Shown here: positions 17,901-39,483 of the stretch, in pieces
Numbering within the stretch: position 1 is the stretch's first letter
Layout of the letters: every line of letters starts with the position of its first letter
IMG/VR virus record: IMGVR_UViG_3300042997_001345
Span: 1 to 55,094 of that record
From: a virus
Taxonomy: Duplodnaviria > Caudoviricetes
DNA: 55,094 nucleotides
Strand: one strand, 5' to 3'
The notes under the pieces: generated by a model
The model's input: only the letters and a program-made list of their open reading frames with translations
Database searches by the model: none
Told to the model about the DNA's origin: nothing
Made by a program: the position numbers and the translations under genes

Positions 17901-18353
17901 ATGGAACTGACACGCCGTACACTACGACTTAAACTAAAGCCAGCCGATCTACACAATCAATGGGCCAATGAAGATCTAGTGATTCGCATGCTTCAAGTCA
18001 TGCACGAACACCACGGCATTGGACTTGCTGCCAACCAAGTTGGCGAAAGAATTCGAATGTTTGTAATGTACATTGACGGACATAGTTGGGGCTGCTTCAA
18101 TCCCGAAATAGTGCAAACTTACAACGACCTTACCGAATTTGACGAAGGATGCTTGAGTTTTCCCGGAGAAACGTGTATAATAAAACGTCCCGACACTATT
18201 GATGTACGTTACTATGATGTAGCCGGGATTGAAGTGGTTGAAAAACTAACAGGGCTGGCCAGTAGATGTTTCCAACACGAACTGGATCACTTAAACGGTA
18301 TTACCATGCACGATCGTTACAAGGAACAAAATGCAGAACAATCCGGAAATTGA
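17901..18353 (+). CDS. def: Peptide deformylase
   Basis: GIGLAANQVG, EGCLS and QHELDHLNG; TAAATA 4 nt before ATG 17901. Confidence 0.95.
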   Translation: MELTRRTLRLKLKPADLHNQWANEDLVIRMLQVMHEHHGIGLAANQVGERIRMFVMYIDGHSWGCFNPEIVQTYNDLTEFDEGCLSFPGETCIIKRPDTIDVRYYDVAGIEVVEKLTGLASRCFQHELDHLNGITMHDRYKEQNAEQSGN

Positions 18354-24069: not shown

Positions 24070-24645
24070 ATGCAATCTTATGTGATAACATTATTTGAAC
24101 ATGAAAATAGTCAAAGGTTATTACAGGATTGCTTGGCCAGCTGCCGCAAGTGGGGATGGTCAGCAGAGCCATTTCCGGCCACATTAGGCACCGCAGTAAC
24201 AGCCCAGCATTATGAACGTGCTGGGCTTTACCTTAACCCTGCTACCAAAATATATCAACGCCCTGGACATCAAGGTTGTTTCTTCAGTCACTGGTATTTG
24301 TGGCATCGGTGTGTTGAAATAAACGAACCCATTGTCGTACTAGAAACAGATGCTGTAATACAAGGTCCATTGCCGGTGTTGGACCTGTCGAAAGGCATAC
24401 AAAAATTTCATCAAGATCGCGGCACTAAAACAGGTACAACAGGAACTTGGAGCAAAGGAGCACATGCTTATGCACTAAGTCCCGCACACGCCGCAGCATT
24501 GATTAGTGGTATTAAATCAACCGAAGTCAAACCCAGTGACAAGTGTATTGGTACCAGATTTGTGCCGTGGCATCACTGGGATTGGGATTTGGTTGCACTC
24601 AACCTCTCACGTGGTCCTTCGACAACTGCTAAACTTGTTGTTTAG
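24070..24645 (+). CDS. Glycosyltransferase family 25-like protein
   Basis: SYVITL, GCFFSHWYLW, IVVLETDA and GAHAYALSP..A motifs; ATG 24070. Confidence 0.75.
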   Translation: MQSYVITLFEHENSQRLLQDCLASCRKWGWSAEPFPATLGTAVTAQHYERAGLYLNPATKIYQRPGHQGCFFSHWYLWHRCVEINEPIVVLETDAVIQGPLPVLDLSKGIQKFHQDRGTKTGTTGTWSKGAHAYALSPAHAAALISGIKSTEVKPSDKCIGTRFVPWHHWDWDLVALNLSRGPSTTAKLVV

Positions 24646-25543
24646 ACGGGCAGTTATACTGGCATGCCAACACTGGCGATTTTGTTATTTTTTGATAAAA
24701 TTCAATAGTATCGGGTTGTTTTAATAGTTGAGTAATTGTATTCTTTTCTATTTGAAAATTCTTTTGATTTTTACCAAATATTGTTTTATAATAAAATCTA
24801 TGATCTTTCACATAGCAACATGGAACATAATGACCTGTTGCCGATATAAAGTGTTCCCTTCCGCTGGTACACTTTGGATCTATAACAACATTGGTTCCTT
24901 TCATAAGGCTATTTTGTAACGAATATCTCGGTCCGAGAAAATCTGCATCTGGCACAAGATATTGTGTTTTTTCGTCGAATCTGTCACTGGGATCCAGTAA
25001 AAATTCATCTATACCCAAATTCATTGCCAGCTGCTGTGCCTGGTTAATTTGTGTTTGATTAAACGCAAATGGAATAAATTTCCAAACTGTTCGACAACTG
25101 GATTGAGCCATGATTTTAATACCGAGTTCTATGGAAACCCAGTCTGCATTTTTTCTATACTGTGTAAAATTATCTGGAATACCGTCGATAGAAAAATATA
25201 TAGAATCATCTGCAGTTAAAATTTTAGCTGTAATATTCCACCAGTCTGTGTCTTTATAACTACCATTGGTTACCACAGTGATATGGCTGCCGCGATTCTT
25301 TAATTTTTGTAACAAGTCGTGAAATTCTGGATGATATATAGGATCTCCGTAAACTCCGCATAATATAATTTTTAATCCTGTTAAATCAATATCTAAAAAA
25401 TTCATTAAAGAATTGACATTGATACTTTTATTTGTCCAGTGCTGTGGCCATTGGTTAATAAATTGAGTTCTTGCACATCCTTCACACTTTAATGTGCATA
25501 TATTAGTGGGTTCTATATGAAATCCAGTTATTTTATTAATCAT
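24629..25543 (-). CDS. Radical SAM protein with SPASM/twitch-like C-terminus
   Basis: CTLKCEGC (CxxxCxxC), GDP, TNG, FSIDG; C-terminal C...PCC...CQYNC. Confidence 0.85.
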   Translation of the reverse strand: MINKITGFHIEPTNICTLKCEGCARTQFINQWPQHWTNKSINVNSLMNFLDIDLTGLKIILCGVYGDPIYHPEFHDLLQKLKNRGSHITVVTNGSYKDTDWWNITAKILTADDSIYFSIDGIPDNFTQYRKNADWVSIELGIKIMAQSSCRTVWKFIPFAFNQTQINQAQQLAMNLGIDEFLLDPSDRFDEKTQYLVPDADFLGPRYSLQNSLMKGTNVVIDPKCTSGREHFISATGHYVPCCYVKDHRFYYKTIFGKNQKNFQIEKNTITQLLKQPDTIEFYQKITKSPVLACQYNCPSKQQV

Positions 25544-25549
25544 AATGTT

Positions 25550-25568
25550 TATTTAAACGGATTAAATA
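25550..25568. promoter_or_regulatory. Back-to-back divergent TAAATA late-type boxes
   Basis: Minus-strand TAAATA at 25550-25555 and plus-strand TAAATA at 25563-25568 in a 44-bp gap. Confidence 0.55.
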
Positions 25569-25587
25569 CAGTATACAAATAAAGACT

Positions 25588-28500
25588 ATGGACATCAAAG
25601 AGCTCGAAGACTATCGCCTTAGCGATGCTATTAAATTTCACACACATCTGAACCCTCGAATCTGGGGCCGTGACGAACATCTGTTGCCGGAAGTTAGAGA
25701 AAAACTTATGGCCATTGCTGCTGACTTCAAGGAGTTTCTGGGCTTGGATTTAGAAGTTAAAGACATTACCATCTCCGGCAGTAATGCTGCTTACACTTAC
25801 ACAGATCACAGCGACATCGATCTACACTTGGTCACAGACTTGCCCCGAGCAGATGCCAGTGAAATATATCGCGAACTGTTTGATGCCAAAAAATATCAGT
25901 ACAACGATCAGCACAATTTTAAAATTGGCGGATACGATGTAGAACTTTATGTGCAGAACGCCAACGAAAATCCCAAAAGCCAGGGCATTTATTCAGTGCA
26001 GGACAATAAATGGATTAGTGTTCCTAAACGACGCAAACCCGAAGTAGACGACATTTCAGTACGGAGCAAGTACGAAGATCTGGGTCAGCGTATCGAAGCT
26101 GCCATCAAATTGGGCAATCGAGAACAGTTGGATTCTTTGGGCAGAAAGATAAGAGAATTTCGCCAGGCCGGATTAGATAAGACCGGCGAGTTTGGCCCAG
26201 AGAATTTGGCATTCAAAATACTACGCAGCAACGGCACATTGGATCAACTACGTGCTGCCAGATTAGCTGCCCGAGATCAAGAACTCAGTATAGAAGAAGC
26301 CAAGAAAAAGAAAAAGAAGAAAGCATTCCGGTACGGCTTTGGAGGCGTGTTTTTTCCCGGGTATCATTACTATGGGCAAACAGATGCTGCCGCAGACGGT
26401 GGTGGCGGCGATGGTGGTGGTGAAAGTGTAAAAGAATCTGCTGTATTTTTGAATCCCAACGCAGTGATAGTAGGACAAGATCACAATAAACCATTGAATC
26501 TCTCGCCCGACACATTGAAAAAAGTCCAGGCTATAGCTGCTAAACACGGTGCTCGGTACGAAGGCAATGGTAAGGATCGCACTTACACAAAAGGACAGAT
26601 TGACAAATATGTAGGCAGCTGGGACGATGAGGTTGCTAAAACTGCCGGCCCAAATGATCCAAAATGGTTGTATGTTTTGTTTGCCAATGTAGATGAAAAT
26701 AATAGAGTTCAACGAGTTGGTGTTGACGCCCAAGATACAATATTCAATAGATTACTGGCAACTGCCAAGGATAATTCATTCCAAGGAATAGGATTTACAT
26801 CACAAGCACTGCAAAAGTTTTTGTCAATGGCCAGCGAAGGCAAATATGATTTTGTAAATATGAGTCAACAACCTGCTACACAAGAAAATCTCACTCGCTT
26901 TCTCAAAGCAGGAGAGTCCTTGATGTGGCCTAGCAATTGGGAACAATATCCCAACAAGGCAGGAAAAATAGCCAAAGCGGCCACAGTTGATGTTAGAGAT
27001 CAATATCTTGCTACAAGAAAAGCAGGTGTCTACGTCACCGGAAGTGGGCACTTAAAGGCTGTTCAAGATATCACAGGTCAACAAGGTGTGACGGAAGATT
27101 CATACAAAGATACCGGTGGTACTTTTATGGATCGATTGGTTGGCGAGATCATGAATTATCATTCAATGCATGATACATATCCAAAACTCAATGATTTTAC
27201 TAGTGGGGTAAAATCAAAACTGAAATCCTTGGGCAGAGACAAGACAGCTCGACTATTTCAACAAGCACTCAAGCAAGCTGCTGAACAGTCGGGTCAGACA
27301 GGTGTGGCGGAAGAGAGCAAAGGCATACGGGAATCTGCTGACGATCTGCAAACACAGTTGGAAAAGTTTGCTGCATTTTGTGTAAAGAAATTGGGAATTG
27401 AAAATCCTCCTGGCATACAACTAAAACGTGATCCCGAATGGTCACGTCGTAATGCCACATTTGGCCGTTATGTGCCGGGAACCAATGTCATGATCTTGAG
27501 TGTGGCTGATCGTCATCCCATGGACATCATGCGTACCTTGGCACACGAACTGGTACACCGCAATCAGGATGAATATGAACCCATGCCGGTTCATGCCGGA
27601 GAAACTGGCAGTGACTGGGAAAATGAAGCCAATGCTAAAGCCGGCGTGCTAATGCGTGACTTCGGCGAACAGAATCCCGATACCTTTGATAAGAAAGCCT
27701 TGGCGGAAGGTGAGTTAAATGAATATCGCGATGCTCTTTATACTTTTGTAAAGAGTAAATTTCCAACCTGGCCTGAGTATGTGTTAAAAGATTTTTTGTA
27801 TCCACAAGCCAAGGGCATTCGTAACCAAGCCGAGTTGGATGATTTTCTAAAAAGAATTAACCAAGAATTTGGTAATTGTAAATGGACGCTGACTAAACTT
27901 CCAATCACTATGGATATCTTTACACCTAAAACTCAACAAATGATTAAAAGCCGAGAAGGTGGTTCAAGTAATCCTTTTCAAGTACCGCGTGATGCCGAAA
28001 GACATGCACAGCAATCAAAAATGATTCAGCAAAAGGGCGTGAGCACTGAACCAATTATTGTTGCTAAATTATCAAACGGTTATGATTTGATTGAAGGTTG
28101 GCACAGAACTATTCAGCATCTAAAAACATTTCCTGAAGGATACACAGGTCCTGCTTGGGTCTGCACTGGAGCCACATACAAAAGTGAAAGTGTCAATCAA
28201 GGTGTGGCGGAAGCGTCGGAGCAATCACTATCATCAATGGTGGCCCAGGATCAAGCTGAACGCAACGAGTATTCACAATTTGTAAAATCACAAGCAGGTG
28301 GCGACTGGACCAAAGGGGCCAAGATGTATGCCCAACTCAAAAAAAGACCCAGCGATGACATATTCAACGATGCTGCAAGATTAAATCAATTTATGAAAAT
28401 GACGTTTGATTTTGATAAATTCACTGATCAAGATTGGGACAATTATTGGCTATTGGCACAACACAGTGATGACCACCGTGACTTCCAGAAGAATGCGTTA

Positions 28501-31218
28501 TCAATAATTAAAAAATATCAAGGTACGGATCATTTGCACTACAAATATCTGTATGATCGAATCAGTTGCGGATTAACTGGTAAACAAAAATACGGAACGC
28601 AGGATATTTGTGGTACAGACAATCAAGTTGTAGCAGAAGCGTCGGGCTATATTCCTGTAACGGATGCAGAAGCCAAAGACCCACGCTACAGCATGGCCAT
28701 TACACAGGATATCCGACCTGGTGAGGTCAAGCGTCAAGCTGCCAAGCTGGGTTGGAAGACTACCCCAGCTGGCACACCTCCTACTGCTAGAACAAATGGA
28801 CTTGTTGAAGAACTCACACGTAAGTTACAATTAGTTAAAGAAGGACTGGGTTTTCCTTTAGTAAGCGAACAAGAACAAGAGCTAGACGAAGTGGCCATGA
28901 GCCCGTCAGCTCTGCAAGCGTTTGCTGCCAGTCCAGCCGCTGCAGGCATGAAAGCCGGCTTCGAAGCTGAGTTAGTGTTTACCGGCATCGGCGGCGACGA
29001 AGAAGAAGGCGAATGGGAACCTGATTACAGCTATGATCCACGTGCATACAGCCTCGAGAACATTGAAGACTTTTTCAGCTCAGGCGATTTTGCTGAGGGC
29101 TTGTCTCGGCGTCAAAAAAACGCATTAGAAGAAGACTGGATGGACTGGTATGACCAGACCCTGTATGATGAGTTTGATGCACCTGTTGCTGTACGTGAAT
29201 GGATTCAAGAAAACGACTGGGACGAAGAAGACCTTATTGAACGTGCGTTAGATGATGAATACAGCGAAGATCGTGTAAAAGAGATACTGGCAGCCATGGA
29301 ACGACGGGTCAGGGGTACTGGCACTGCTGCTGATGCTGACTTAGTAGAAGAATATGTGGGTGCCAGACAAGAAGTTGAACGACAGCTGGATGAACGTGTA
29401 GATCTGGCCATAGAAGACCAAAACAGCGATTACGAAAGTGCTCTAGACGAATTTAGAGAAAACTGGGACCGGTCCGAAAGCGACTGGTTGCGTGATCGCG
29501 GCTGGACCAACATGAGCGATTTAGCTTATAACTTTGATTTTGCATGGCCACACATGACCATGTCGGGTGGCAGCTCCGAAGGTGGATTCAACGAAGAAGC
29601 AGCACAACAACTGGCTGACAGCTTGAGTGAAGCTCTAGGAGTTGAAACCACTGTCAGCACTGGTTATCACGGTGCTACTCGCGATACAAGTACTTGGATT
29701 TTTGAACCCGACGGCAGCTTAGATGCCGACGATGATGCCAACATGCCGGTGGAGATTGTGAGTCCGCCTATGCCACTAGCAAAAACTCTAGAAATCCTGC
29801 CCAAGTTTTTTGAGTGGGCTGAAGAAAATGGTGCTTATGCCAATAGCTCAACTGGTTTCCACATGAGCGTGAGCATGCCCGATCACGAAGGCAACCTGTT
29901 GGACTATACCAAGTTGGCCTTGTTCCTGGGTGACGAATATGTGCTGCAACAGTTTGGACGCGAAGCCAATACCTATGCCAAGAGTGCCTTACAGAAGATT
30001 CGCGAAAAGAAAGGAAATGTCAATGCCGAAGAAATTCTTAGTACAATGCGAAAACACCTGGGTCATTTTGCTTCACGTGCGTTAGCACAGCCAAGTGGAT
30101 TTGGCAAATACACATCGATTAATCCCAAGACCAATTACATTGAATTTCGTTCAGCAGGCGGCAGCAACTACTTTGAGGACATGGATCGGATACAAAACAC
30201 CCTGATGCGTTATGCTCGTGCCATGGACATTGCGTTTGATCCTGACGCCGACAAACCCGAATACGCCAAGAAACTGTACAAGTTGTTGACCGATACAAAA
30301 ACACAACAAGTAACGGATCCTAAAACTGGTACCAAACGTACAGAAGTTGTGCCTGGGCTTGACAACGATGCTATCAGTATATTCAGTCGTTTTGTAGCAG
30401 GAGAGTTGCCCAAGTCAGAACTCAAAGGGGTTCTCAAGAAACTACAGTACGGTCGCGAAGTGGCCAAAAATCCACCCAAAGAAAAGATTCAGTGGCAAGT
30501 AACTCACCCCAATGGCAGTTCTCTTATTAAGGTATCGGCCAGTTCATCTGAGGAAGCTATTAAGATAGCCAAACAAGAGTGGGGCGATAGTTTGCGAGTC
30601 TGGCCTGATTCTGCTTATCGTGCAGAGCCAGTGGTACCTGCCACACAGACTCCGGCAACTGATCAACTCAATGCACCAGCAGCAGATGATCCCGGTGGCA
30701 ACTATGTGCTGAGACGTAGAGAAGGCAGCGAAGGTGTAGGTCCGGTGGTACATAGATTCTCAGCCCCAAACAACATGGCAGCAGTAGAAGCATCTCGACA
30801 ATGGACCACTGCTCGTGGCGTTGAACGCCGTAGTGTTTGGTTGGATCATATCTCAGGTGTGCCACCTGAGATATTAAATGCAAGACCTGTCAGTGCCACA
30901 CTGGGAGAACCTCGTCCGGCGTTTACTGAGCCACGATCCAGTTCTATTCCTGAAGTACCGCTTGACATAGCACAGAATTTCCAGGAACCACCTGCCAGTT
31001 GGGACAGTGGTTCACCAATTGTGTCAGAACCTCAGAATTTCCCGGCCGCTGGCAATTCTTTCTCCGGTGAATGGAAAGTGGTGGATGGTCTGGGACGAGA
31101 AGTTCATAGATTCGGCGGTATTGGCAACAGTCAAAGCGATGCCAATCGAGTAGCAGCTCAGTGGGCTAGACAAACTGGGTTTGACGGAAATCTGGAAGTA
31201 TATCCAGTGATGAGATAA
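25588..31218 (+). CDS. 1876-aa multi-domain polyprotein: Pol-beta-type nucleotidyltransferase, TraB/Tiki-like, zincin peptidase, ParB-like, DUF6624-like and putative amidoligase modules
   Basis: ISGSNA..SDIDLH; VTGSGHL; TLAHELVH..E.EAN; EPIIV..LIEGWHR; WLLAQHSD..YLYDR..KYGTQ; GFEAE..EPDGSL..EIVSP..TGFHMSV..IEFR. Confidence 0.85.
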   Translation: MDIKELEDYRLSDAIKFHTHLNPRIWGRDEHLLPEVREKLMAIAADFKEFLGLDLEVKDITISGSNAAYTYTDHSDIDLHLVTDLPRADASEIYRELFDAKKYQYNDQHNFKIGGYDVELYVQNANENPKSQGIYSVQDNKWISVPKRRKPEVDDISVRSKYEDLGQRIEAAIKLGNREQLDSLGRKIREFRQAGLDKTGEFGPENLAFKILRSNGTLDQLRAARLAARDQELSIEEAKKKKKKKAFRYGFGGVFFPGYHYYGQTDAAADGGGGDGGGESVKESAVFLNPNAVIVGQDHNKPLNLSPDTLKKVQAIAAKHGARYEGNGKDRTYTKGQIDKYVGSWDDEVAKTAGPNDPKWLYVLFANVDENNRVQRVGVDAQDTIFNRLLATAKDNSFQGIGFTSQALQKFLSMASEGKYDFVNMSQQPATQENLTRFLKAGESLMWPSNWEQYPNKAGKIAKAATVDVRDQYLATRKAGVYVTGSGHLKAVQDITGQQGVTEDSYKDTGGTFMDRLVGEIMNYHSMHDTYPKLNDFTSGVKSKLKSLGRDKTARLFQQALKQAAEQSGQTGVAEESKGIRESADDLQTQLEKFAAFCVKKLGIENPPGIQLKRDPEWSRRNATFGRYVPGTNVMILSVADRHPMDIMRTLAHELVHRNQDEYEPMPVHAGETGSDWENEANAKAGVLMRDFGEQNPDTFDKKALAEGELNEYRDALYTFVKSKFPTWPEYVLKDFLYPQAKGIRNQAELDDFLKRINQEFGNCKWTLTKLPITMDIFTPKTQQMIKSREGGSSNPFQVPRDAERHAQQSKMIQQKGVSTEPIIVAKLSNGYDLIEGWHRTIQHLKTFPEGYTGPAWVCTGATYKSESVNQGVAEASEQSLSSMVAQDQAERNEYSQFVKSQAGGDWTKGAKMYAQLKKRPSDDIFNDAARLNQFMKMTFDFDKFTDQDWDNYWLLAQHSDDHRDFQKNALSIIKKYQGTDHLHYKYLYDRISCGLTGKQKYGTQDICGTDNQVVAEASGYIPVTDAEAKDPRYSMAITQDIRPGEVKRQAAKLGWKTTPAGTPPTARTNGLVEELTRKLQLVKEGLGFPLVSEQEQELDEVAMSPSALQAFAASPAAAGMKAGFEAELVFTGIGGDEEEGEWEPDYSYDPRAYSLENIEDFFSSGDFAEGLSRRQKNALEEDWMDWYDQTLYDEFDAPVAVREWIQENDWDEEDLIERALDDEYSEDRVKEILAAMERRVRGTGTAADADLVEEYVGARQEVERQLDERVDLAIEDQNSDYESALDEFRENWDRSESDWLRDRGWTNMSDLAYNFDFAWPHMTMSGGSSEGGFNEEAAQQLADSLSEALGVETTVSTGYHGATRDTSTWIFEPDGSLDADDDANMPVEIVSPPMPLAKTLEILPKFFEWAEENGAYANSSTGFHMSVSMPDHEGNLLDYTKLALFLGDEYVLQQFGREANTYAKSALQKIREKKGNVNAEEILSTMRKHLGHFASRALAQPSGFGKYTSINPKTNYIEFRSAGGSNYFEDMDRIQNTLMRYARAMDIAFDPDADKPEYAKKLYKLLTDTKTQQVTDPKTGTKRTEVVPGLDNDAISIFSRFVAGELPKSELKGVLKKLQYGREVAKNPPKEKIQWQVTHPNGSSLIKVSASSSEEAIKIAKQEWGDSLRVWPDSAYRAEPVVPATQTPATDQLNAPAADDPGGNYVLRRREGSEGVGPVVHRFSAPNNMAAVEASRQWTTARGVERRSVWLDHISGVPPEILNARPVSATLGEPRPAFTEPRSSSIPEVPLDIAQNFQEPPASWDSGSPIVSEPQNFPAAGNSFSGEWKVVDGLGREVHRFGGIGNSQSDANRVAAQWARQTGFDGNLEVYPVMR

Positions 31219-31220
31219 CA

Positions 31221-31421
31221 ATGAGAGCAAATGAATTTGTAACTGAAAACTTTGCAGATGGCAAGGTCCGAGGCAAGAGTCGTCCTGGGCGTGTGAAACG
31301 TGCAGGTGCCAGTTGTTCTGGTTCTGTAACTGCCTTGCGTAAGCGAGCCAAAAATTCTTCTGGTGAACGTGCAAAGATGTATCACTGGTGTGCCAATATG
31401 AAGTCAGGTAAAAAGAAATGA
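31221..31421 (+). CDS. Small basic protein, putative internal head protein
   Basis: N-terminal MRANEFVTE; K/R-rich with 2 Cys. Confidence 0.75.
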   Translation: MRANEFVTENFADGKVRGKSRPGRVKRAGASCSGSVTALRKRAKNSSGERAKMYHWCANMKSGKKK

Positions 31422-32029
31422 GAGCAAACGAGTTAACAGAATACAGCAAAACCAGTAACAAGATCGACAAGATCCTGAAAGCCAAAGGTTACAAACGACT
31501 GGGTGCCGGTGTTGATCAAACAGCTTACTTAGAGCCTGGCACAGGATACGTACTCAAAGTATTTGGCACAAAAGGCGGCGAATCATTCAGTGCTGACCAT
31601 AAAATGTTTTTTGCCTGGGCAAAATACTGTATGAAAAACGCCGACAACCCGTTCCTGCCACGCTTTGGTGGTTACGAAAGTTTTGTACTTGACGGCGATC
31701 GGTATCTACAGATACGTCAAGAACCACTCAAGCCCCTGGGAGTTGTCGGGCACGTACTGGAATTGTTGGCAACTGCAATTGAGGACAACGGCATTCGAAC
31801 GTTAGAAGAGGCCGAGGAGTTCATCGAAGACTTTAATGAAGGTTATGTTCCAGCTTTAAAAAAGTTAAAGCAACAACTGGGCCCAGGTGGTGTAGAATTG
31901 ATGTTCAGCACCATACTGAGATTGTATTTGGTTGGCAAAAAAAATGGTTGGTTGTTTGACCTGCATGCTGGTAACTTTATGCGGCGTGCCGAAGGTACTC
32001 CAGTGATAGTGGATCCCTGGGTGCTGTAA
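31418..32029 (+). CDS. Protein-kinase-like fold enzyme, putative packaged protein
   Basis: LGAG Gly loop, VLKV, DLHAGNFM catalytic loop, VIVDP; N-terminal MRANELTE. Confidence 0.75.
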   Translation: MRANELTEYSKTSNKIDKILKAKGYKRLGAGVDQTAYLEPGTGYVLKVFGTKGGESFSADHKMFFAWAKYCMKNADNPFLPRFGGYESFVLDGDRYLQIRQEPLKPLGVVGHVLELLATAIEDNGIRTLEEAEEFIEDFNEGYVPALKKLKQQLGPGGVELMFSTILRLYLVGKKNGWLFDLHAGNFMRRAEGTPVIVDPWVL

Positions 32030-32041
32030 ACTAAATACATC

Positions 32042-32251
32042 ATGCGTATTTTTGAAATTGCACAACCTAAGAAATCTAAAATCAAATCTTACTCAGTTAA
32101 GATTAAAATACCTGGGCTTGGCGGGTATGTCAATATAACTGACACTATTGTAATGGCAGTAAATCCACAAATGGCACGTAAATTAGTACAGGTACAATAC
32201 AATGTTCCTCATGCCATGATTGGTCAACCGCGTGAAGTAAAACTACGCTAA
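32042..32251 (+). CDS. Small basic hypothetical protein
   Basis: MRIFEI start, TAAATA 4 nt upstream. Confidence 0.7.
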   Translation: MRIFEIAQPKKSKIKSYSVKIKIPGLGGYVNITDTIVMAVNPQMARKLVQVQYNVPHAMIGQPREVKLR

Positions 32252-32258
32252 ATACAGC

Positions 32259-32549
32259 GTGACCAAACAATTTATCAAAGCCCAAATCGACATTCACTGT
32301 AAACACAAAGGCAAAGAGTCGCCTTCTTATCGTGTGTTTGTCAACGACGAATTATTTGTCGAACGTACATGGATTTGGCCAGGATATTATCTTAGCGAAA
32401 TGCTACAAATTGAAGCCGAACCCGGTGAATATCATGTGCGAGTAGAGGCAGTTCAGCCCATTGGTGGAAAATTTAAAACACGTAACCATCGTGTAGAATA
32501 TGGTCCTGCACGTTGGATCGATGAACAAACATTGGAAATACTAACATGA
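32259..32549 (+). CDS. Hypothetical protein
   Basis: GTG start 4 nt after TAAATA. Confidence 0.65.
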   Translation: MTKQFIKAQIDIHCKHKGKESPSYRVFVNDELFVERTWIWPGYYLSEMLQIEAEPGEYHVRVEAVQPIGGKFKTRNHRVEYGPARWIDEQTLEILT

Positions 32550-32701
32550 GAGCCAAAGAATTTGTTAGAGAAAACGCATCAGCAGGTGCCACAAGTAGCG
32601 GTAGTGTTGCTGCAGTAGCACAACCCATGGGTGCAGTAATTACTCGCACACAAAACCGCAAACCTGGTAAATATAAAAACAGTTTAACACGGACCAAATA
32701 A
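32546..32701 (+). CDS. Small protein (51 aa, absent from ORF track), putative internal head protein
   Basis: MRAKEFVRENASAGATSSGSVA...LTRTK; ATGA overlap upstream and ends 1 nt before the dps start. Confidence 0.75.
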   Translation: MRAKEFVRENASAGATSSGSVAAVAQPMGAVITRTQNRKPGKYKNSLTRTK

Positions 32702-32702
32702 C

Positions 32703-33146
32703 ATGTTATCAGACGATCTAAAAACTTTATTGGCTACACAATATGCATTTGCGGTAAAAGCACAGTACTCTCATTGGAATGTGGAAGGACCTGATTTTGC
32801 TCAACTGCACAAGTTCTTTGGTAAACTGTACGAGGAAGTCAACGACAACAGCATTGATCAAACAGCAGAATTCATACGTGTGTTGGACGAATACACTCCA
32901 GGTAGTTTTGAACGTTTTCAAGAACTGAGTCTGATTCCGGGACAGACTAAGGTACCCCGTGCTCGACTCATGATCGAAGAACTCTTAGCCGACACCCAGG
33001 TCTTGATCGACCTGCTAAATCAGTGTTTTGTGTCAGCTGAACAAGAAAACCAGCAGGGCATTGCTGACTTTGTGAGTCAACGCCTGGCGGCCATGGGCAA
33101 ACATGCTTGGATGTTGCGTAGCTTCCTGAAGGACAACAGAGCATGA
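32703..33146 (+). CDS. dps: Dps/ferritin-like DNA-protection protein
   Basis: HWNVEGPDFAQLHKFF..LYEE...D..AE and KHAWMLRS. Confidence 0.9.
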   Translation: MLSDDLKTLLATQYAFAVKAQYSHWNVEGPDFAQLHKFFGKLYEEVNDNSIDQTAEFIRVLDEYTPGSFERFQELSLIPGQTKVPRARLMIEELLADTQVLIDLLNQCFVSAEQENQQGIADFVSQRLAAMGKHAWMLRSFLKDNRA

Positions 33147-34354
33147 AGATAAAAAATCTGTTTGAGGGGTTAAATGCTCAACAGCGTTCGGTACCTCAAT
33201 TGCCTGCTATGGCCAAAGCTAAACATATCAGTGTGTTGGGTGCTAAAACAGATCCTCAGCATCCATTTGCAGGATATGCTGTTGGTGCTGACGAAAGTGC
33301 CGAGCCAGATCGGAAAAGCATTGGTCCAGACCGGAACGATCCTTTTGAGAAAGGCTGGCGTGCTCAACCCGATGCTACTAACCCTTATGCAGCTGGCACA
33401 CCCGAACATGCAAAATGGCAAGACGGCCGAGATGAGCGTGAGGCACAGCCTAATCATTACGACGAAGATGTAGCGGAGGCAACAGGTGACGTAAAATTTG
33501 ATAAGATGCTTAAAGGTATCACCGGTAAAAAAGCAGTAGCTAAACAACAAAAAACAGACACAAAGCAACAGGTACGTGATGCGTTTGGTGGTATGTTTGG
33601 TGGAGGTAATCCTGCTGATAAACTCAGCATCAGAAACAAAGGTGTGGCGGAAGCTGAGCGTAATGAAATGGATACCCCTGCTGTGCAAGCAGCATTGGCC
33701 AAAATGGCCGAGCGTCACCGAGGTGAGAAGTGGACCAAAGAACAGTTAGCAGCCTTAGGCAAACGTATAGCTGCACGTGGACAAGCCAAGAAAGATGTAG
33801 ATGAAACTGTGTCTACGCACAAAGGCGGAAAAATAACCAAGACCCCCACTGGTATTAAACATCAAGCTGCACCCGGTAATTATGGAGGGTACGAACCCGA
33901 ATTTGACCATTTGCAAACTCTTGATAAAAATACCACAGGCAGGATTGAAAGATCAATGGATATTAAACACAAGAGAGAAAAAGCCTGGCAAGGTGGAATC
34001 GAGTTAGACGAAGCTGTAACCAAAGAAGATATCATCAGTAAACTAAAAGCCCGGTTAGGCGATTACCTGTCAGACATTTCTAAAGAAATCAAAAAAGATC
34101 CTGACCTGATCGACAAGTTGGCAGCTAAACCTGCTGGAGATCAAATGGGTCCTCCAGTTAAAACCGTCACCACAGACGACGGCCACCAAATCTCAATTCA
34201 CGGCAACGAAGATGACGGATTCCGTATCTCGATCAAGAACAAGCAGGCACCCAGCCAGTTTGCCAACTTGGATGAAGCTGTAATGGCCTGCGAAATGTAC
34301 TGTGCTCGACGCCGTACTCAAGCATTGAACGCTGACTATGTAGAGGAAGCCTGA
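33143..34354 (+). CDS. Modular hypothetical polyprotein, putative internal head protein
   Basis: MKIKNLFE start; short blocks separated by DVAE, GVAE, DVDE and ELDE. Confidence 0.7.
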   Translation: MKIKNLFEGLNAQQRSVPQLPAMAKAKHISVLGAKTDPQHPFAGYAVGADESAEPDRKSIGPDRNDPFEKGWRAQPDATNPYAAGTPEHAKWQDGRDEREAQPNHYDEDVAEATGDVKFDKMLKGITGKKAVAKQQKTDTKQQVRDAFGGMFGGGNPADKLSIRNKGVAEAERNEMDTPAVQAALAKMAERHRGEKWTKEQLAALGKRIAARGQAKKDVDETVSTHKGGKITKTPTGIKHQAAPGNYGGYEPEFDHLQTLDKNTTGRIERSMDIKHKREKAWQGGIELDEAVTKEDIISKLKARLGDYLSDISKEIKKDPDLIDKLAAKPAGDQMGPPVKTVTTDDGHQISIHGNEDDGFRISIKNKQAPSQFANLDEAVMACEMYCARRRTQALNADYVEEA

Positions 34355-34668
34355 TGAGATTTAGAGAAATTACCGAAGCTTGCTGGTCAGGATATGAACA
34401 GAAAGGCATGAAGAAAAAAGGCAATAGACAAGTTCCAAATTGTGTAAAGAAAACTGACGAAAGCCTAGAGAAGTATGTGGATAAGGGCGAGTGTCCCAAC
34501 TGCGGTGGTGAAATGGTCGCAGAAGACCAGATCACGGAAAAACAAGATGCCTGTTATCACAAGGTCAAAGGCCGTTACAAGATTTGGCCATCAGCTTATG
34601 CATCCGGTGCGCTAGTTCGTTGCAGAAAAGTAGGTGCTGCCAACTGGGGTAACAAGAGCAAAAAATGA
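34354..34668 (+). CDS. Small Cys-containing basic modular protein
   Basis: MRFREITE start; three blocks each with a Cys pair. Confidence 0.75.
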   Translation: MRFREITEACWSGYEQKGMKKKGNRQVPNCVKKTDESLEKYVDKGECPNCGGEMVAEDQITEKQDACYHKVKGRYKIWPSAYASGALVRCRKVGAANWGNKSKK

Positions 34669-35327
34669 GAGCCGCAGAATTCATCTCCGAAAAATGGAGT
34701 CAGAAGTACAAGAGCTCGATCAATTGTGCCAATCCCAAAGGCTTCTCACAAAAGGCACACTGTGCTGGCCGTAAGAAAAACGAGGACCTTGCTGAGAATC
34801 TGCGAGACTGGTTCGGCAAAGGCAAAGGCGGCGGAGCCGGTGGCGGTGGCTGGGACAGATACAACACCAAGGGCGAAAGAATTGGCAAATGCGGTGATCG
34901 CAAACCAGGCGAAGGCAAACCCAAATGCCTGAGCAAGAGTCGTGCTGCCAGCCTACGTGCTTCGGGCGGCAAGAGTGCTATAGCCGCAGCAGTGCGTCGT
35001 AAACGTGACAAAGATACCAATCCCGAACGATCGGGTGCAGCACGAAACGTACCAAATAAAAAACAAAACGAAAACAAAGATATAGAAACAGAATTATTAA
35101 AAAAACAGTTAATGGCACGTCATCCGCAGGCAAAGAATCTCAGTAATGCAATGGCGTTAGATTATTTTAAAAGTCAACAACAGGATCGCCGAGATATTGT
35201 TCGATTAGATCGCGAAAATGATCAAGAGGAAGCAGAAATTGAAAGACTTGACCAAGAAAACGATCAAGAAGAAACAGAAATTGAACGTCTTAAAAGAACT
35301 ATCAATCAACTTACACGAGGGAGTTAA
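34665..35327 (+). CDS. Basic modular protein with acidic coiled-coil tail
   Basis: MRAAEFISE start; duplicated RLD(R/Q)ENDQEE(A/T)EIE at the C-terminus. Confidence 0.75.
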   Translation: MRAAEFISEKWSQKYKSSINCANPKGFSQKAHCAGRKKNEDLAENLRDWFGKGKGGGAGGGGWDRYNTKGERIGKCGDRKPGEGKPKCLSKSRAASLRASGGKSAIAAAVRRKRDKDTNPERSGAARNVPNKKQNENKDIETELLKKQLMARHPQAKNLSNAMALDYFKSQQQDRRDIVRLDRENDQEEAEIERLDQENDQEETEIERLKRTINQLTRGS

Positions 35328-35330
35328 TAC

Positions 35331-35555
35331 ATGAAACCTATTCTTATAGTATTAGCAGCGACAGCAGCATTAACAGGTTGCGTGATATCAGATCCTTACT
35401 ATGTACAACCACAGACAGTATATGTTCAACCGCGTCCAGTGTACATTCCACCTCCGGTATATTATAGACCACCGCCACCAATACCACAGTGCTATTGGGT
35501 ACAGCGTTGGAATCCACAGTATCGCACGTATCAGAATGTCAGGGTATGTAGATAA
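35331..35555 (+). CDS. Small proline-rich lipoprotein
   Basis: MK plus hydrophobic core plus LTGC lipobox; Pro/Tyr-rich mature part; GAGGG RBS. Confidence 0.75.
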   Translation: MKPILIVLAATAALTGCVISDPYYVQPQTVYVQPRPVYIPPPVYYRPPPPIPQCYWVQRWNPQYRTYQNVRVCR

Positions 35556-35622
35556 TGCCATATCCTGTATATCCAGAACTTCCAGTTGACAGCGATTGGA
35601 AACGCAATCCTTACGCACCCAC

Positions 35623-35832
35623 ATGACCAGAGAATATAGAATACGTTCAGAGTCCTACAGCAAAGATACCACAGATGACTGTTATCTCGATCCCAGCGAT
35701 CCCATATATGAGATAAAACAGCAAGCAGGATTGAAAGATCGAGTAGTCAATAAATTTACTACGCAAGAAATACAAGATCAAGGACTACAACCCGGTACTA
35801 CCAAGTGGTTCCAAATGATGTTTGGAAGATAA
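35623..35832 (+). CDS. Hypothetical protein
   Basis: Short ORF filling the gap; start uncertain (TTG 35596 or ATG 35623). Confidence 0.55.
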   Translation: MTREYRIRSESYSKDTTDDCYLDPSDPIYEIKQQAGLKDRVVNKFTTQEIQDQGLQPGTTKWFQMMFGR

Positions 35833-35833
35833 C

Positions 35834-36025
35834 ATGAGAGCAACAGAATTTGTTTCCAAACGCAGAAAAAAAGTCAACGAATTAGATTTCTTAGGCAGTC
35901 CTTGTACCAAAGACTGTTCGGGTCATCGTGCCGGATATGCATGGAGTAAGCGTAAAGGAACAGTGCCTGCTAGCCGTAGCCCCAGTTTCAACAAAGGTGC
36001 AGCATTACAGGCGGCAGGAAAATAG
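35834..36025 (+). CDS. Small basic protein, putative internal head protein
   Basis: MRATEFVS start (ATG 35834); CTKDCSGH motif. Confidence 0.7.
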   Translation: MRATEFVSKRRKKVNELDFLGSPCTKDCSGHRAGYAWSKRKGTVPASRSPSFNKGAALQAAGK

Positions 36026-36029
36026 AATA

Positions 36030-36126
36030 CACTTAGGACCGTCACAGTTTACTGTGCCTAAGGCGTCTGGGTGCCCGGCTACCCGTGAATTGGACTCGCT
36101 ACCCTAATTTTACAAAATGCCGGGAC
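36030..36126 (+). ncRNA. Candidate structured RNA or cis-regulatory element (family unrecognised)
   Basis: GC-rich intergenic stretch with stems CTTAGG/CCTAAG, CACAG/CTGTG and CCCGGC/GCCGGG. Confidence 0.45.
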
Positions 36127-36141
36127 TTTGCCAAATATCTA

Positions 36142-36169
36142 TTGCATTCTACAACAACTCATGTATAAT
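36142..36169 (+). promoter_or_regulatory. Sigma70-like promoter for the replication operon
   Basis: TTGCAT-16 nt-TATAAT. Confidence 0.5.
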
Positions 36170-36193
36170 AACACTTTAACACTGGAGTTATAC

Positions 36194-36454
36194 ATGTCAG
36201 ATCGCACATTTTCCACAGAACAAAAAGCTAAACTCACTGCCATTATCAACGAAGGCATGCAGGTCATGCACGAAGTAGAAACACTCAATGCCGGCTTGTC
36301 AGACACCATCAAGGCCATTGCTGAAGAAATGGAAATCAAACCCAACATCCTTAAAAAAGCCATTCGTTTGGCACACAAAGCAGAATTTGGCAAAGAACAA
36401 CAGGACCACGAACTGTTGGAAACAATCTTGACCACAGTAGGAAAAACTCTGTAA
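36194..36454 (+). CDS. Small helical DNA-binding protein (T4 DsbA-like)
   Basis: GGAG RBS; helical pattern IKAIAEEMEIKPNILKKAIRLAHK recalls T4 DsbA; function inferred. Confidence 0.6.
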   Translation: MSDRTFSTEQKAKLTAIINEGMQVMHEVETLNAGLSDTIKAIAEEMEIKPNILKKAIRLAHKAEFGKEQQDHELLETILTTVGKTL

Positions 36455-36753
36455 TGGATCAGGCATCCAATGTTGCCAGTGACGTCTATGCATGGATCAA
36501 AAAGGACTTTCGCGAATGGCCCTTGCGTTTTGTGCTGGAAGTCACGGCTTGGATAACCAGCATTGCCTGTTCTACAATTATGGCGTTTACTTTGCCGCAT
36601 CCACCATTCTTGTTACTGTATCCCATGTTCATTGCTCAGTGCAGTATATTTGCCTGGGCTGCATGGACTCGGCAAAGTCTTGGAATGTTGGGCAATTATA
36701 TTTTGCTAATAAGTATCGATATAGCAGCCTTGATTAGATTAGTCACGCTGTAA
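36454..36753 (+). CDS. Small membrane protein
   Basis: Three hydrophobic segments; TAATG coupling. Confidence 0.7.
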   Translation: MDQASNVASDVYAWIKKDFREWPLRFVLEVTAWITSIACSTIMAFTLPHPPFLLLYPMFIAQCSIFAWAAWTRQSLGMLGNYILLISIDIAALIRLVTL

Positions 36754-36816
36754 GCGTCGCCCACTCTACGGGCAAGTACACGGCTAGGTGAGCCACAAGT
36801 CACTGGGAGAAGCAAA

Positions 36817-39483
36817 TTGAGTTATGTAGATGCCCTGTTCGATCGAGACAAAGATCGAATCCACGTAGTTGAACGCATCAACGGCGTTCGCAAATATCAA
36901 GAGTATCCAGCAAATTATATTTTCTATTACGACGACCCCCGCGGTAAGTTTCGTAGTATCTTCGACACACCGGTTGCACGTTTCAGCACAAGAAACAACA
37001 AGGAGTTTCGCAAAGAAATTCGCATGCACACCGGCAAACAACTCTTCGAAAGCGATATCAATCCTGTATTCCGTTGCCTAGCAGAAAACTTCCTAGGTGC
37101 TGATGCTCCTAAGTTACACACAGCATTCTTCGACATTGAAACAGACTTCGATCCTGTGCGTGGATTCTCCAGCACAGAAGAAGCTTTCAACAAAATCACA
37201 GCCATTACAGTTTACTTGGATTGGTTGGATCAACTGGTTACACTAGCTATCCCACCCAAGTCAATGAGCATGGAGACTGCTAGAGAGATTGCAGCTGAAT
37301 TTGACAACACATTCATGTTTGAAAAAGAAGCAGACTTGTTGGATTCGTTCCTGCATCTAATTGACGATGCTGATGTGCTGTCGGGCTGGAACAGTGAAGG
37401 TTATGATATTCCTTATACTGTGAATCGTGTTACACAAGTATTGAGCAAGGATGATACCAGACGTTTTTGTCTATGGGGACAGATGCCCAAGGCTAGAACC
37501 TTTGAACGCTTTGGTAAAGAAAGTCTAACATTCGACTTGGTAGGTCGTGTGCATATGGACTATATGCAACTGTATCGCAAGTACACATATGAAGAGCGTC
37601 ACAGTTACAGCTTGGATGCCATTGGCGAGTACGAAGACCTTGGTTCAAAGACCGCATTCGAAGGCACACTGGATCAACTGTACAATCAAAACTTCCGCAC
37701 GTTTATTGAGTACAACAGACAAGACGTGTTGCTGGTTAACAAGATTGATAAGAAACTAAAGTTCTTGGATCTTGCCAATACCATTGCACACGAAAACACA
37801 GTGCTGTTGCCAACCACAACAGGTGCGGTTGCAGTAACCGAGCAGGCCATCATTAACGAAGCTCATGCACGTGGCATGGTTGTTCCAAATCGTCGCAGCT
37901 ACGGTGATGATGACAACACTCAAGCAGCTGGTGCTTATGTGGCATATCCTAAAAAGGGTCTATGGCAAGACATTGGATCCATTGACATCAACAGCTTGTA
38001 TCCATCAGCTATTCGTGCCTTGAACATGGGACCAGAAACCATTGTGGGGCAACTGCGTCCCACAGCTACAGATGCCTTAATCAATGAACGCATGAGCAAG
38101 GGCATGAGCTTTGCAGCAGCCTGGGAAGGTTTGTTTGCAACCTTGGAATATACCGCTGTGATGGAACAGAATCGCGGCTTTGAACTCACTGTTGATTGGC
38201 AAGATGGCACCAGTACCACCATGTCAGCTGCGGAGTTTTGGCCCATTATATTCAACAGCAACAAGCCCTGGATCATCAGTGCCAATGGCACTATCTTCAC
38301 ATACGACAAGGAAGGAATCATTCCGGGCTTGCTGGCACGTTGGTATGCTGAACGCAAAGAAATGCAGGCTACACTTACTCGAGTAAAGGAAGAAGGCAAT
38401 GCTGAACTGGAAGAATACTGGGACAAACGTCAGCTTGTTAAAAAGATTAACCTCAACAGCTTGTATGGTGCTATTCTTAATCCTGGTTGTAGATTCTTTG
38501 ACAAACGCATTGGACAATCAACAACACTGACTGGTCGGAGCATTGCCAAACACATGGATGCTTATGTGAATGAGTGTATCACTGGCCGATATGATCACGT
38601 AGGCGACGCCATCATTTACGGCGACACAGACTCGTGCTACTTTACAGCATATCCTGTACTGAAGAAAGAAATAGATGCAGGCCGCATGGTCTGGAACAAG
38701 GATACAGCCATTGCGTTGTATGACAGCATTGCTGATCAAGTCAACATCAGCTTTCCTGGCTTCATGGAACAGGCTTTTCATTGCCCCCGTGAGATGGGTG
38801 CTATCATCAAGGGTGGTCGAGAAATTGTTGCCAGCAAGGGCTTGTTTATTACCAAGAAGCGTTATGCTGTGTTGTTCTATGACAAGGATGGCAAACGCTA
38901 TGATGTGGGTGGCAAACCTGGCAAGGTCAAGGCCATGGGCCTGGATCTCAAACGTAGCGATACTCCTAAGGTAATTCAGGACTTCTTAAGCGATATTCTC
39001 AACGATGTACTCAACGGCGTTGGGCGAGATCCTATTATAGAAAAGATTCGTGATTTCAAATATCTTTTCAAAGAACGTCCAGGTTGGGAAAAAGGTTCGC
39101 CTAAGCGTGTCAACAACTTGACCATGTACGGCAATAAAGAAATCAAAGAAGGAAAAACCAACATGCCTGGTCACGTGCGAGCAGCTATTAATTGGAATAA
39201 TCTTCGACGCATGAACAGTGACAACTACAGTCTAGCAGTCACAGACGGTATGAAAGTTATTGTGTGTAAATTAAGGCAAAATCCCTTGGGGTGGACGTCA
39301 ATTGCTTATCCCACAGATGAACAACATTTGCCCAAATGGTTTACAGAACTACCATTCAATGATGCCGAAATGGAAGCCACTGTTATTGACGGAAAGGTAG
39401 ACAACTTATTAAGTGTATTGGAATGGGACTTGGCATCCGCAACTAACACAGATAATACTTTTGAAAATTTATTTGAGTTCTAA
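36817..39483 (+). CDS. Family B DNA polymerase
   Basis: Exo I FFDIET, Exo II GWNSEGYDIPY, Exo III YNRQD; DINSLYPS, KINLNSLYG, YGDTDS, KKRY; TTG start with GGGAG RBS. Confidence 0.96.
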   Translation: MSYVDALFDRDKDRIHVVERINGVRKYQEYPANYIFYYDDPRGKFRSIFDTPVARFSTRNNKEFRKEIRMHTGKQLFESDINPVFRCLAENFLGADAPKLHTAFFDIETDFDPVRGFSSTEEAFNKITAITVYLDWLDQLVTLAIPPKSMSMETAREIAAEFDNTFMFEKEADLLDSFLHLIDDADVLSGWNSEGYDIPYTVNRVTQVLSKDDTRRFCLWGQMPKARTFERFGKESLTFDLVGRVHMDYMQLYRKYTYEERHSYSLDAIGEYEDLGSKTAFEGTLDQLYNQNFRTFIEYNRQDVLLVNKIDKKLKFLDLANTIAHENTVLLPTTTGAVAVTEQAIINEAHARGMVVPNRRSYGDDDNTQAAGAYVAYPKKGLWQDIGSIDINSLYPSAIRALNMGPETIVGQLRPTATDALINERMSKGMSFAAAWEGLFATLEYTAVMEQNRGFELTVDWQDGTSTTMSAAEFWPIIFNSNKPWIISANGTIFTYDKEGIIPGLLARWYAERKEMQATLTRVKEEGNAELEEYWDKRQLVKKINLNSLYGAILNPGCRFFDKRIGQSTTLTGRSIAKHMDAYVNECITGRYDHVGDAIIYGDTDSCYFTAYPVLKKEIDAGRMVWNKDTAIALYDSIADQVNISFPGFMEQAFHCPREMGAIIKGGREIVASKGLFITKKRYAVLFYDKDGKRYDVGGKPGKVKAMGLDLKRSDTPKVIQDFLSDILNDVLNGVGRDPIIEKIRDFKYLFKERPGWEKGSPKRVNNLTMYGNKEIKEGKTNMPGHVRAAINWNNLRRMNSDNYSLAVTDGMKVIVCKLRQNPLGWTSIAYPTDEQHLPKWFTELPFNDAEMEATVIDGKVDNLLSVLEWDLASATNTDNTFENLFEF

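Follow-up and report, generated by a model that had tools for sequence, protein, structure and literature searches.

An N-terminal leader resembling the capsid targeting sequence of phage T4 on unrelated small genes of a predicted jumbo phage

The complete 55,094-bp record IMGVR_UViG_3300042997_001345 of the IMG/VR collection, a tailed-virus contig (Caudoviricetes) referred to below as the window, carries nearly all of its genes on the plus strand. Between positions 31221 and 36025, immediately behind a gene for a multi-module protein of 1876 amino acids (aa), lie six genes on this strand whose products begin with MR[AF]xE[FLI]..E, here called the tag or leader, and no further gene of the contig begins in this way. 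The tagged genes, which we name after their start positions, are arranged head to tail with ATGA overlaps or gaps of 1-2 nucleotides (nt). All eight N-termini quoted for this region in the initial annotation, i.e. these six and two weaker ones at 32042 and 33143, were present at the coordinates claimed there. The consensus of the tag is MRAxEF[IV]xE. Its EF[IV]xE core is strictly present in three of the six leaders; those of genes 31418 and 34354 are one residue shorter, and that of gene 35834 ends in Lys. The open reading frame (ORF) call begins this last gene at a TTG codon at 35822; its homologues in L280 and L282 begin at the Met of MRATEFV, and the one in L280, which is 95% identical, has MRATEFVSE, i.e. 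a terminal Glu. L-numbers denote loci and G-numbers large related or tag-bearing records (L383, for example, comes from G011).

The scan of N-termini that the initial annotation had proposed was run on the 55 kb of the window and on related records. Applied to every ATG on both strands of the window, the regular expression M[RK]x(1-3)E[FLIVM]x(0-2)[EDS] gave seven matches, namely the six gene starts and a 32-aa ORF lying out of frame in the polyprotein gene, so that the tag is confined to the six clustered starts apart from this ORF. At the DNA level, ATGAGAGC occurs five times in the window, each time at a tagged start, compared to 1.25 occurrences expected from shuffles, of which 2 in 100 reach five. 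A longer degenerate pattern of 27 nt, ATGAGAGCNNNNGARTTYRTNNNNGAR, was found three times in the window versus 0 in 100 shuffles. After removal of the first nine residues, no pair among the six tagged proteins matches at E < 0.08. The earlier statement that five of the genes begin with common DNA and are unrelated downstream is thus borne out.

Table 1 Features of the tagged locus and of the large gene preceding it.
Feature	Position	Strand	Description
Tagged gene 1, 66 aa	31221..31421	+	Tag MRANEFVTE (31221-31247), then very basic NFADG module; predicted mature isoelectric point (pI) 11.4
Tagged gene 2, 203 aa	31418..32029	+	Short tag MRANELTE (31418-31441), then minimal protein-kinase-like enzyme; phrog_15752, E 1.1e-9
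Tagged gene 3, 51 aa	32546..32701	+	Tag MRAKEFVRE (32546-32572); remainder like N-arm of T4-type major capsid protein (MCP), including LKE/NASAG junction; phrog_17311
Tagged gene 4, 104 aa	34354..34668	+	Tag MRFREITE (34354-34377); two Cys-rich basic modules, linker MVAEDQITE (34513-34539)
Tagged gene 5, 220 aa	34665..35327	+	Tag MRAAEFISE (34665-34691); basic modules split by DLAE (34785-34796); acidic coiled repeat at C-terminus
Tagged gene 6, 63 aa	35834..36025	+	MRATEFVSK (35834-35860); second site VNE (35873-35881) directly before conserved module
Gene with probably decayed tag	32042..32251	+	MRIFEIAQP, lacking terminal Glu; homologues begin MRLIEIAQP (L282) and MRAQDFIKT (L300)
403-aa gene	33143..34354	+	Variant leader MKIKNLFE (33143-33166); internal linkers DVAEA (33467-33481) and GVAEA (33641-33655)
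1876-aa multi-module, 'polyvalent'-like protein	25588..31218	+	2 nt upstream of tagged gene 1; Pfam Amidoligase_2, phrog_36119
Linkers of the 1876-aa protein	RDQELSIEE 26272-26298; GVAEE 27301-27315; ALAEGELNE 27697-27723; GVAEA 28201-28215; VVAEA 28627-28641	+	

In IMG/VR, patterns for the tag with AGA as the codon of Arg2 were found in at least 127 loci and those with CGN in at least 122 loci. Both forms together amount to at least 283 matches in at least 249 loci. The claim that the tag is portable was substantiated by this search: it heads at least 264 distinct proteins, counted as distinct sequences of the first 40 residues. Among the 283 matches listed, 248 have an in-frame stop at most 25 codons upstream, 121 of the 122 ORFs that end within their locus are at least 40 aa long (median 124 aa), and two or three tandem tags are present in 32 loci. 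A reversed control pattern gave 0 loci in the entire IMG/VR collection. Across hundreds of genes, Arg2 is encoded by AGA, CGA, CGT, CGG or CGC, and E5, F6, [IV]7 and E9 are fixed. The tag is a signal at the protein level; AGA and CGN codons are both used, and the reversed pattern is not found.

This picture was the same in 1.48 Mb of related DNA, where the full tag is present on 22 of the 44 ORF starts encoding MRA, with near variants on about 10 of the remaining 22. Phe occupies position 6 in all 22 tags, although five other residues were permitted by the search, and positions 4 and 8 vary freely. Exact tags occur two to five times in each of five large records, with 0 for the reversed controls, and one to five times in each of a further five records. 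Seven tagged ORFs, 123-542 aa in length, are present in G003 (352,754 bp). In G011, the closest complete relative, a single tagged pair is located between the tail tube/head closure genes and a gene for a virion structural protein. Such a tandem tagged pair of about 125 aa each (YRFGVA.AGA; DR.Y.LNR.MMA.A..DG) is the commonest cargo in the relatives, e.g. in L383:8101-8855 (G011), L006, L031, L050, L069 and L070; the pair is absent from the window, and neither protein matches PHROG.

The leader resembles the capsid targeting sequence (CTS) of phage T4. According to passages of PMC8442874, the 'highly basic' T4 internal proteins (IPs) are cut once adjoining the CTS MKTYQEFIAE, which is the form quoted in the initial annotation. 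Passages of PMC9026906 state that gp21 cuts after L/I-X-E, that residues 1-10 of IPIII are sufficient for packaging, and that CTS residues 4 and 7 act in targeting and residues 8 and 10 in processing; Asp at position 10 prevents processing while targeting is retained. In an alignment on the final Glu, E6, F7, I8 and E10 of T4 fall on the invariant E5, F6, [IV]7 and E9 of the tag. The strict L/I-X-E end is found in three of the six window tags (LTE, ITE and ISE); VTE and VRE have Val at P3, and VSK of gene 35834 lacks the Glu, with VNE following seven residues on. The proposed likeness to the CTS was recovered from the T4 genome itself, where the single degenerate pattern M-[KR]-x(2-3)-E-F-[IV]-x-E is present at three places only: ipII and ipIII, which are annotated internal virion proteins, and gp61.1. 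The last of these (NC_000866 18966-19130), a hypothetical protein of 54 aa whose gene adjoins the primase gene, begins with the CTS-like MKTFKEFIKE. An intermediate form, MKSFKQFQE, starts gp122 of the cyanophage Bellamy, which is homologous to the first module of gene 34665. In the open-access papers searched, no phage paper with an MRAxEF-type string was found; work related to a CTS was limited to T4, phiKZ-like phages and P1, and a CTS is described only for T-even phages, with longer propeptides for phiKZ-like phages.

The tag had also been regarded as the N-terminal counterpart of a GVAE linker, and this was supported by modules that are tagged in one phage and internal in another, where they are preceded by ..[LIV]xE. 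At such internal junctions, [LIV]xE was present in 14 of 17 cases and Glu at position -1 in 17 of 17; after two near-identical pairs had been collapsed, the count was 13 of 15. The NFADG module of gene 31221 follows SLNE, SIAE, DIEE or VGE elsewhere, and also the off-motif FEE and EHE. The modules of gene 34354 follow QLDE, NLDE and QITE, the first one standing after QLDE/NLDE in L043 and L292 and the second one being a separate tagged gene in L183. Similarly, the middle module of gene 34665 stands after DLAE and recurs in L285 as a tagged gene, VNE or QLDE precedes the module of gene 35834, and two segments of the 1876-aa protein, located behind SIEE and ELNE, occur as tagged genes in L110, L144 and L018. 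A 'SGYIPV' module is preceded by VVAE, VVAE, VIAE and VVE behind four different upstream modules (4/4). For the kinase-like family, the 120 best of 299 hits were examined and the module start was located in 115, of which 114 have the module after [LIV]xE; it starts at most 12 residues into the protein in 60 cases, at 13-30 in 48, and beyond 30 in 7, the latter behind nucleotidyltransferase (NTase), ParB-like and zincin-like modules. Homologues of gene 33143 have LVE/GLN or VEE/GLD at the equivalent place (the slash marks the junction).

The motif [GVD]VAE[AE] occurs five times in the 1876-aa polyprotein and gene 33143 (polyprotein plus locus, 3450 aa) versus 0 times in the 13,901 aa of the other window genes. 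In the 1876-aa protein, only Amidoligase_2 passes the Pfam cut-off and phrog_36119 spans aa 15-234; its modularity was recognised from homologues of single segments. The linker RDQELSIEE reads as a vestigial tag. In L282, which is 90%-related, the polyprotein has modules swapped exactly at ALAE/ and VVAE/. A HELVH motif at aa 653 marks a putative zincin-like module that has no profile match. About five of seven zincin-module junctions are near [LIV]xE; their borders were extrapolated from BLAST starts, may be off by 1-2 residues, and were left out of the counts above.

Outside the tagged locus, the window encodes a T4-type family B DNA polymerase (36817-39483), a clamp loader, PhoH, a peptide deformylase, a ClpA-like ATPase and several virion structural proteins. 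The ATPase is full-length and, together with a ClpP pair found in relatives, amounts to a phage-borne ClpAP system. The DNA polymerase is at most 50.7% identical to those of cultured phages, the nearest being the jumbo phages Sinorhizobium phage Phosso and Agrobacterium phage Atu_ph07, and it has more than 612 relatives in IMG/VR, with 71-97% identity among the 80 matches listed. From these polymerase relationships and the IMG/VR relatives, the contig is read as part of the genome of a jumbo phage that has a T4 core and is both abundant and uncultured.

Head genes, namely those of a T4-type protease, scaffold and MCP, were studied in related or tag-bearing records. Peptidase_S77, the family of T4 gp21, and a Gp23 MCP are present in 5/5 large tag-bearing records (98-100% complete), and Peptidase_S77 in 11 of 15 related or tag-bearing records, the four without it being 15-40% complete. 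The scaffold protein of G003 contains 22 [LIV]xE in 361 aa, i.e. 60.9/1000 compared to 12.7/1000 over the 338 ORFs of G003, a 4.8-fold enrichment. This would be expected for a scaffold chopped by a gp21-type protease. The strict motif E[FLIMY][IVL]xE is not found in the G003 scaffold, where the enrichment is limited to the shorter [LIV]xE. The proteases of the relatives start with M..YL[KRQ]E, and their MCPs contain ..RKYLKE/NASAGSTVSGNIATLN.. or ..LAE/S.S.G.., a stretch that phmmer aligns with the start of mature T4 gp23. Judged from these sequences, the specificity of a gp21-type protease appears to be kept in the relatives.

The same junction recurs in one of the tagged genes of the window. 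The product of gene 32546, MRAKEFVRE/NASAGATSSGSVAAV.., matches the MCP of G003 across the junction (BLASTP, single comparison: E 1e-5, 12/31 identical), and its post-tag motif NASAGxTxSGxxA..PMG..R is shared with the MCP N-arm. The gene belongs to a conserved family of basic proteins of 51-67 aa located upstream of the DNA polymerase in many relatives (L276:1342-2559 and the MCP of L382 were compared). The 51-aa protein had no match in a tblastn search against cultured phages. The product could imitate the N-arm of the MCP or its maturation site, or compete with either.

With regard to the cargo, five of the six tagged proteins have a predicted mature pI of 9.4-11.8, compared to 7.9 for the kinase-like product of gene 31418. 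The AlphaFold2 (AF2) model of the latter has a mean pLDDT of 90.4, with values below 50 for residues 1-7 only, so that the tag is predicted to be disordered. Foldseek against the PDB returned 137 matches at E <= 0.001 with TM-scores of 0.32-0.45; almost all of those listed are protein kinase domains, and one is a 5-methylthioribose kinase. A search of PDB sequences with the family profile gave only chance-level matches. The model thus predicts a bilobal protein kinase-like fold. K47, D181, N186 and D199 are invariant in 38 homologues and are, in our reading, the putative catalytic Lys, the Asp and Asn of the catalytic loop, and the metal-binding Asp. Other tagged cargo in IMG/VR comprises a GH19 hydrolase, weak ART-PolyVal and GNAT matches, multi-module proteins with DUF6321, and membrane proteins; the ART-PolyVal match of the tagged protein in L054 (E 4.4e-6) is under the Pfam cut-off. 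In L010:1179-1796 and L051, the tag is followed by a twin-arginine (Tat)-like RRGFL..AxA and, in L010, by a GH19 peptidoglycan-hydrolase-like domain, an unusual combination for a protein located inside the capsid. In cyanophages, homologues of the Cys-rich module carry the annotation virion 'structural protein' (S-B68) or are sited between the tail fibre and terminase (TerL) genes (Bellamy).

The explanation that we favour, with moderate confidence, is that the tag is a variant of the T4 CTS that would be cut by the prohead protease; the six tagged genes probably encode packaged and injected proteins. The reading given in the initial annotation is thus supported to the extent that sequence analysis allows. 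According to this model, the leader would dock a freshly synthesised protein at the scaffolding core while the prohead assembles, a gp21-type prohead protease would cut after the final Glu of the tag, and the mature protein would remain inside the head until it is passed into the host along with the DNA. The GVAE/LxE linkers of the 1876-aa protein, like those of the small proteins with several modules, would serve as internal copies of this cleavage site, and cargo could be loaded either one tagged module at a time or as a string of modules. The tie between tags and linkers suggests that the sites of cleavage are also the places where modules are exchanged. More tentatively, and with confidence somewhat short of even, we propose that a cosmopolitan clade of uncultured jumbo phages with a T4 core uses a two-part cargo grammar, in which an MRAxEF[IV]xE leader and internal [LIV]xE linkers are combined with release by the prohead protease and shuffling at the cleavage sites, and by which any module could be loaded into the prohead.

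If this grammar is true, the injected proteome could be read from sequence; it would comprise enzymes of the kinase-like, ART-like and GNAT-like kinds, Cys-rich basic modules, a GH19 hydrolase and the 1876-aa polyvalent protein. If the leader marks packaged cargo, it would single out candidate injected effectors by the hundred in jumbo phages that are aquatic, abundant and uncultured, would explain how polyvalent proteins are cut into working parts, and would provide a second natural packaging tag for phage engineering. In T4, internal proteins are a first-response anti-defence: IPI blocks GmrSD, and IPIII is required on E. coli ECOR17 (passages of PMC3012670 and PMC9391042).

A number of observations weigh against a CTS-like role. 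Compared to the T4 CTS, the tag lacks one residue, and nothing conserved takes the place of Tyr4, which acts in targeting in T4, since position 4 of the tag is variable. Two of the window tags have Val at P3, in contrast to the published L/I-X-E of T4, the tag of gene 35834 does not end in Glu, and the start of gene 32042 resembles a decayed tag only. The exact tag is absent from the four cultured jumbo relatives Phosso, Atu_ph07, Vibrio phage 2.275.O and XaC1 (both Arg codon classes), and from Bellamy (CGN class only). Genes for the protease, the scaffold and the MCP are absent from the window contig, and all evidence on head genes comes from relatives with at most 74% polymerase identity. 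The co-occurrence with Peptidase_S77 is necessary for the model but non-discriminating, since any T4-core phage would have the protease. For some modules, the preceding Glu, or the LxE as a unit, could belong to the fold of the module itself instead of marking a site (ENFADG; kinase L[DT]E[YFW]S). The tag is also found on a GH19 hydrolase with a Tat-like RRGFL signal and on proteins with membrane segments, which are unlike T4 internal proteins. Promoter searches recovered no late signal for the locus: in the window, the T4 late promoter TATAAATA occurs once versus 3.3 times expected and CTAAATA ten times versus 9.0 expected, and no enrichment of sigma-70-like promoters or terminators was found at 24500-37500. 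TAAATA is located at most 40 nt upstream of 44 of 266 tagged starts versus 110 of 7311 other ATGs and may be a T4-like late promoter element; it was not used as evidence because it mostly lies only 4-5 nt from the ATG.

A further difficulty is the ClpA-type ATPase of the window (Clp_N, AAA, AAA_2, ClpB_D2-small; 18331-20619), 11 kb upstream of the tags. A ClpA-like ATPase is present in 5/5 complete tag-bearing relatives (G001-G004 and G011), each with two ClpP genes, and lies among the tagged genes in G003. The leader might thus be a signal for the phage's own ClpA/ClpP, i.e. a degron or an unfolding handle timing the life of the protein, unrelated to the capsid. We consider this unlikely: processive degradation leaves the [LIV]xE at internal borders unexplained, as it does the fact that gene 32546 resembles the maturation junction of the MCP, and the use of the same motif by T4 counts against it, as T4 is not known to encode ClpA or ClpP. 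Another possible reading is that the [LIV]xE sites, including the leader, are cleaved by another protease, with the proteins having their role in the producing cell or following release and no capsid loading taking place. The candidate would be a host enzyme or the HExxH zincin-like module, given the HELVH motif of the polyprotein and the zincin processing proposed for polyvalent proteins in passages of PMC5512222. This seems quite unlikely to us, in that the zincin module lacks a profile match here, cleavage after Glu in L/I-X-E is the specificity documented for gp21 in passages of PMC9026906, and the scaffold of the relatives is enriched in just this [LIV]xE.

It is also conceivable that the shared start has no addressing role and is either a trace of how the genes were born, by recombination or duplication at a cassette they have in common, or a translation start that has been optimised. 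The sharing of ATGAGAGC by 5/6 tags, the module swaps at tag and linker sequences, and the ATGA overlaps and 1-2 nt gaps, which suggest translational coupling, all agree with this. A pure DNA or translation-start cassette is nevertheless very unlikely because of the codon freedom, the codons of Arg2 varying in hundreds of genes while E5, F6, [IV]7 and E9 stay fixed, and the motif class is also found inside proteins, where no initiation occurs. Highly improbable, finally, is a leader that targets elsewhere, e.g. to the cell envelope or for export. The tags followed by RRGFL..AxA in L010 and L051 (GH19 in L010) and the hydrophobic segments in L248, L107 and L196 would fit such a role, but the leader is charged and short, most cargo is soluble and basic, and ejection proteins of other phages can have membrane helices, e.g. 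gp47 of SPN3US according to passages of PMC5694885.

As for the surroundings of the locus, the gene order in relatives with 75-90% polymerase identity is polyprotein, NFADG module, 32042, 32259, 32546, a Dps-like gene (32703), 33143, ... 35331, 35834 and DNA polymerase. The kinase gene (31418) and genes 34354 and 34665 are variably present among the relatives, and the NFADG module is fused to differing partners. The untagged Dps/ferritin-like gene at 32703-33146 (Pfam Ferritin, E 2.7e-19) is kept directly after the MCP-N-arm-like gene in L282, L285, L300 and L343. Another untagged gene at 35331-35555, conserved in L280 and L282, encodes 74 aa with a lipoprotein-like signal (..LTGC) and Pro-rich repeats of the PXPV type. 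The C-terminus of the gene 34665 product (window 35160-35300) contains a near-perfect tandem peptide repeat, DRENDQEEAEIERL / DQENDQEETEIERL. CTAAATA is present at 32031-32037 and 32248-32254, 4 nt before the starts at 32042 and 32259, and the head operons of G003 and G011 are preceded by TAAATA at a distance of about 35 nt (L382, L383, L271).

Compared to known systems, the leader is closest to the CTS of T4 IPI, IPII and IPIII, with which it shares a length of about ten residues at the N-terminus, its place on unrelated, mostly basic small proteins, and a core of the E-F-I-x-E type, ending in what resembles the motif of the prohead protease. It differs in having nine residues instead of ten, M-R-A in place of M-K-T-Y, and often Val at P3. 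Furthermore, it is known from sequence alone, on hundreds of contigs of uncultured jumbo phages, where it stands on enzymes and multi-module proteins and is tied to internal LxE linkers. In the giant phiKZ-like phages SPN3US and 201phi2-1, a gp21 homologue likewise removes propeptides of head and ejection proteins by cleavage behind the Glu of a three-residue motif, and these are thought to be prohead-targeting; unlike the tag, these propeptides are 20 to >100 residues long, share no portable peptide and end in A/S/G-X-E. T4 Alt offers a parallel for the tagged kinase-like enzyme, as this packaged ADP-ribosyltransferase has a short N-terminal propeptide removed by gp21 (passages of PMC9026906), whereas the enzyme of the window is of another family and is a candidate cargo from its sequence. 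The 1876-aa protein, in turn, resembles the polyvalent proteins of phages and conjugative elements, which are predicted to be packaged and injected (Iyer et al. 2017, passages of PMC5512222), in apparently joining unrelated modules such as an NTase-like N-domain, an HExxH module, Amidoligase_2 and others. For those proteins, processing by zincin-like peptidases was proposed in the same source, whereas here the borders between modules carry a gp21-type motif, and the same modules are also found as single genes with a CTS-like leader.

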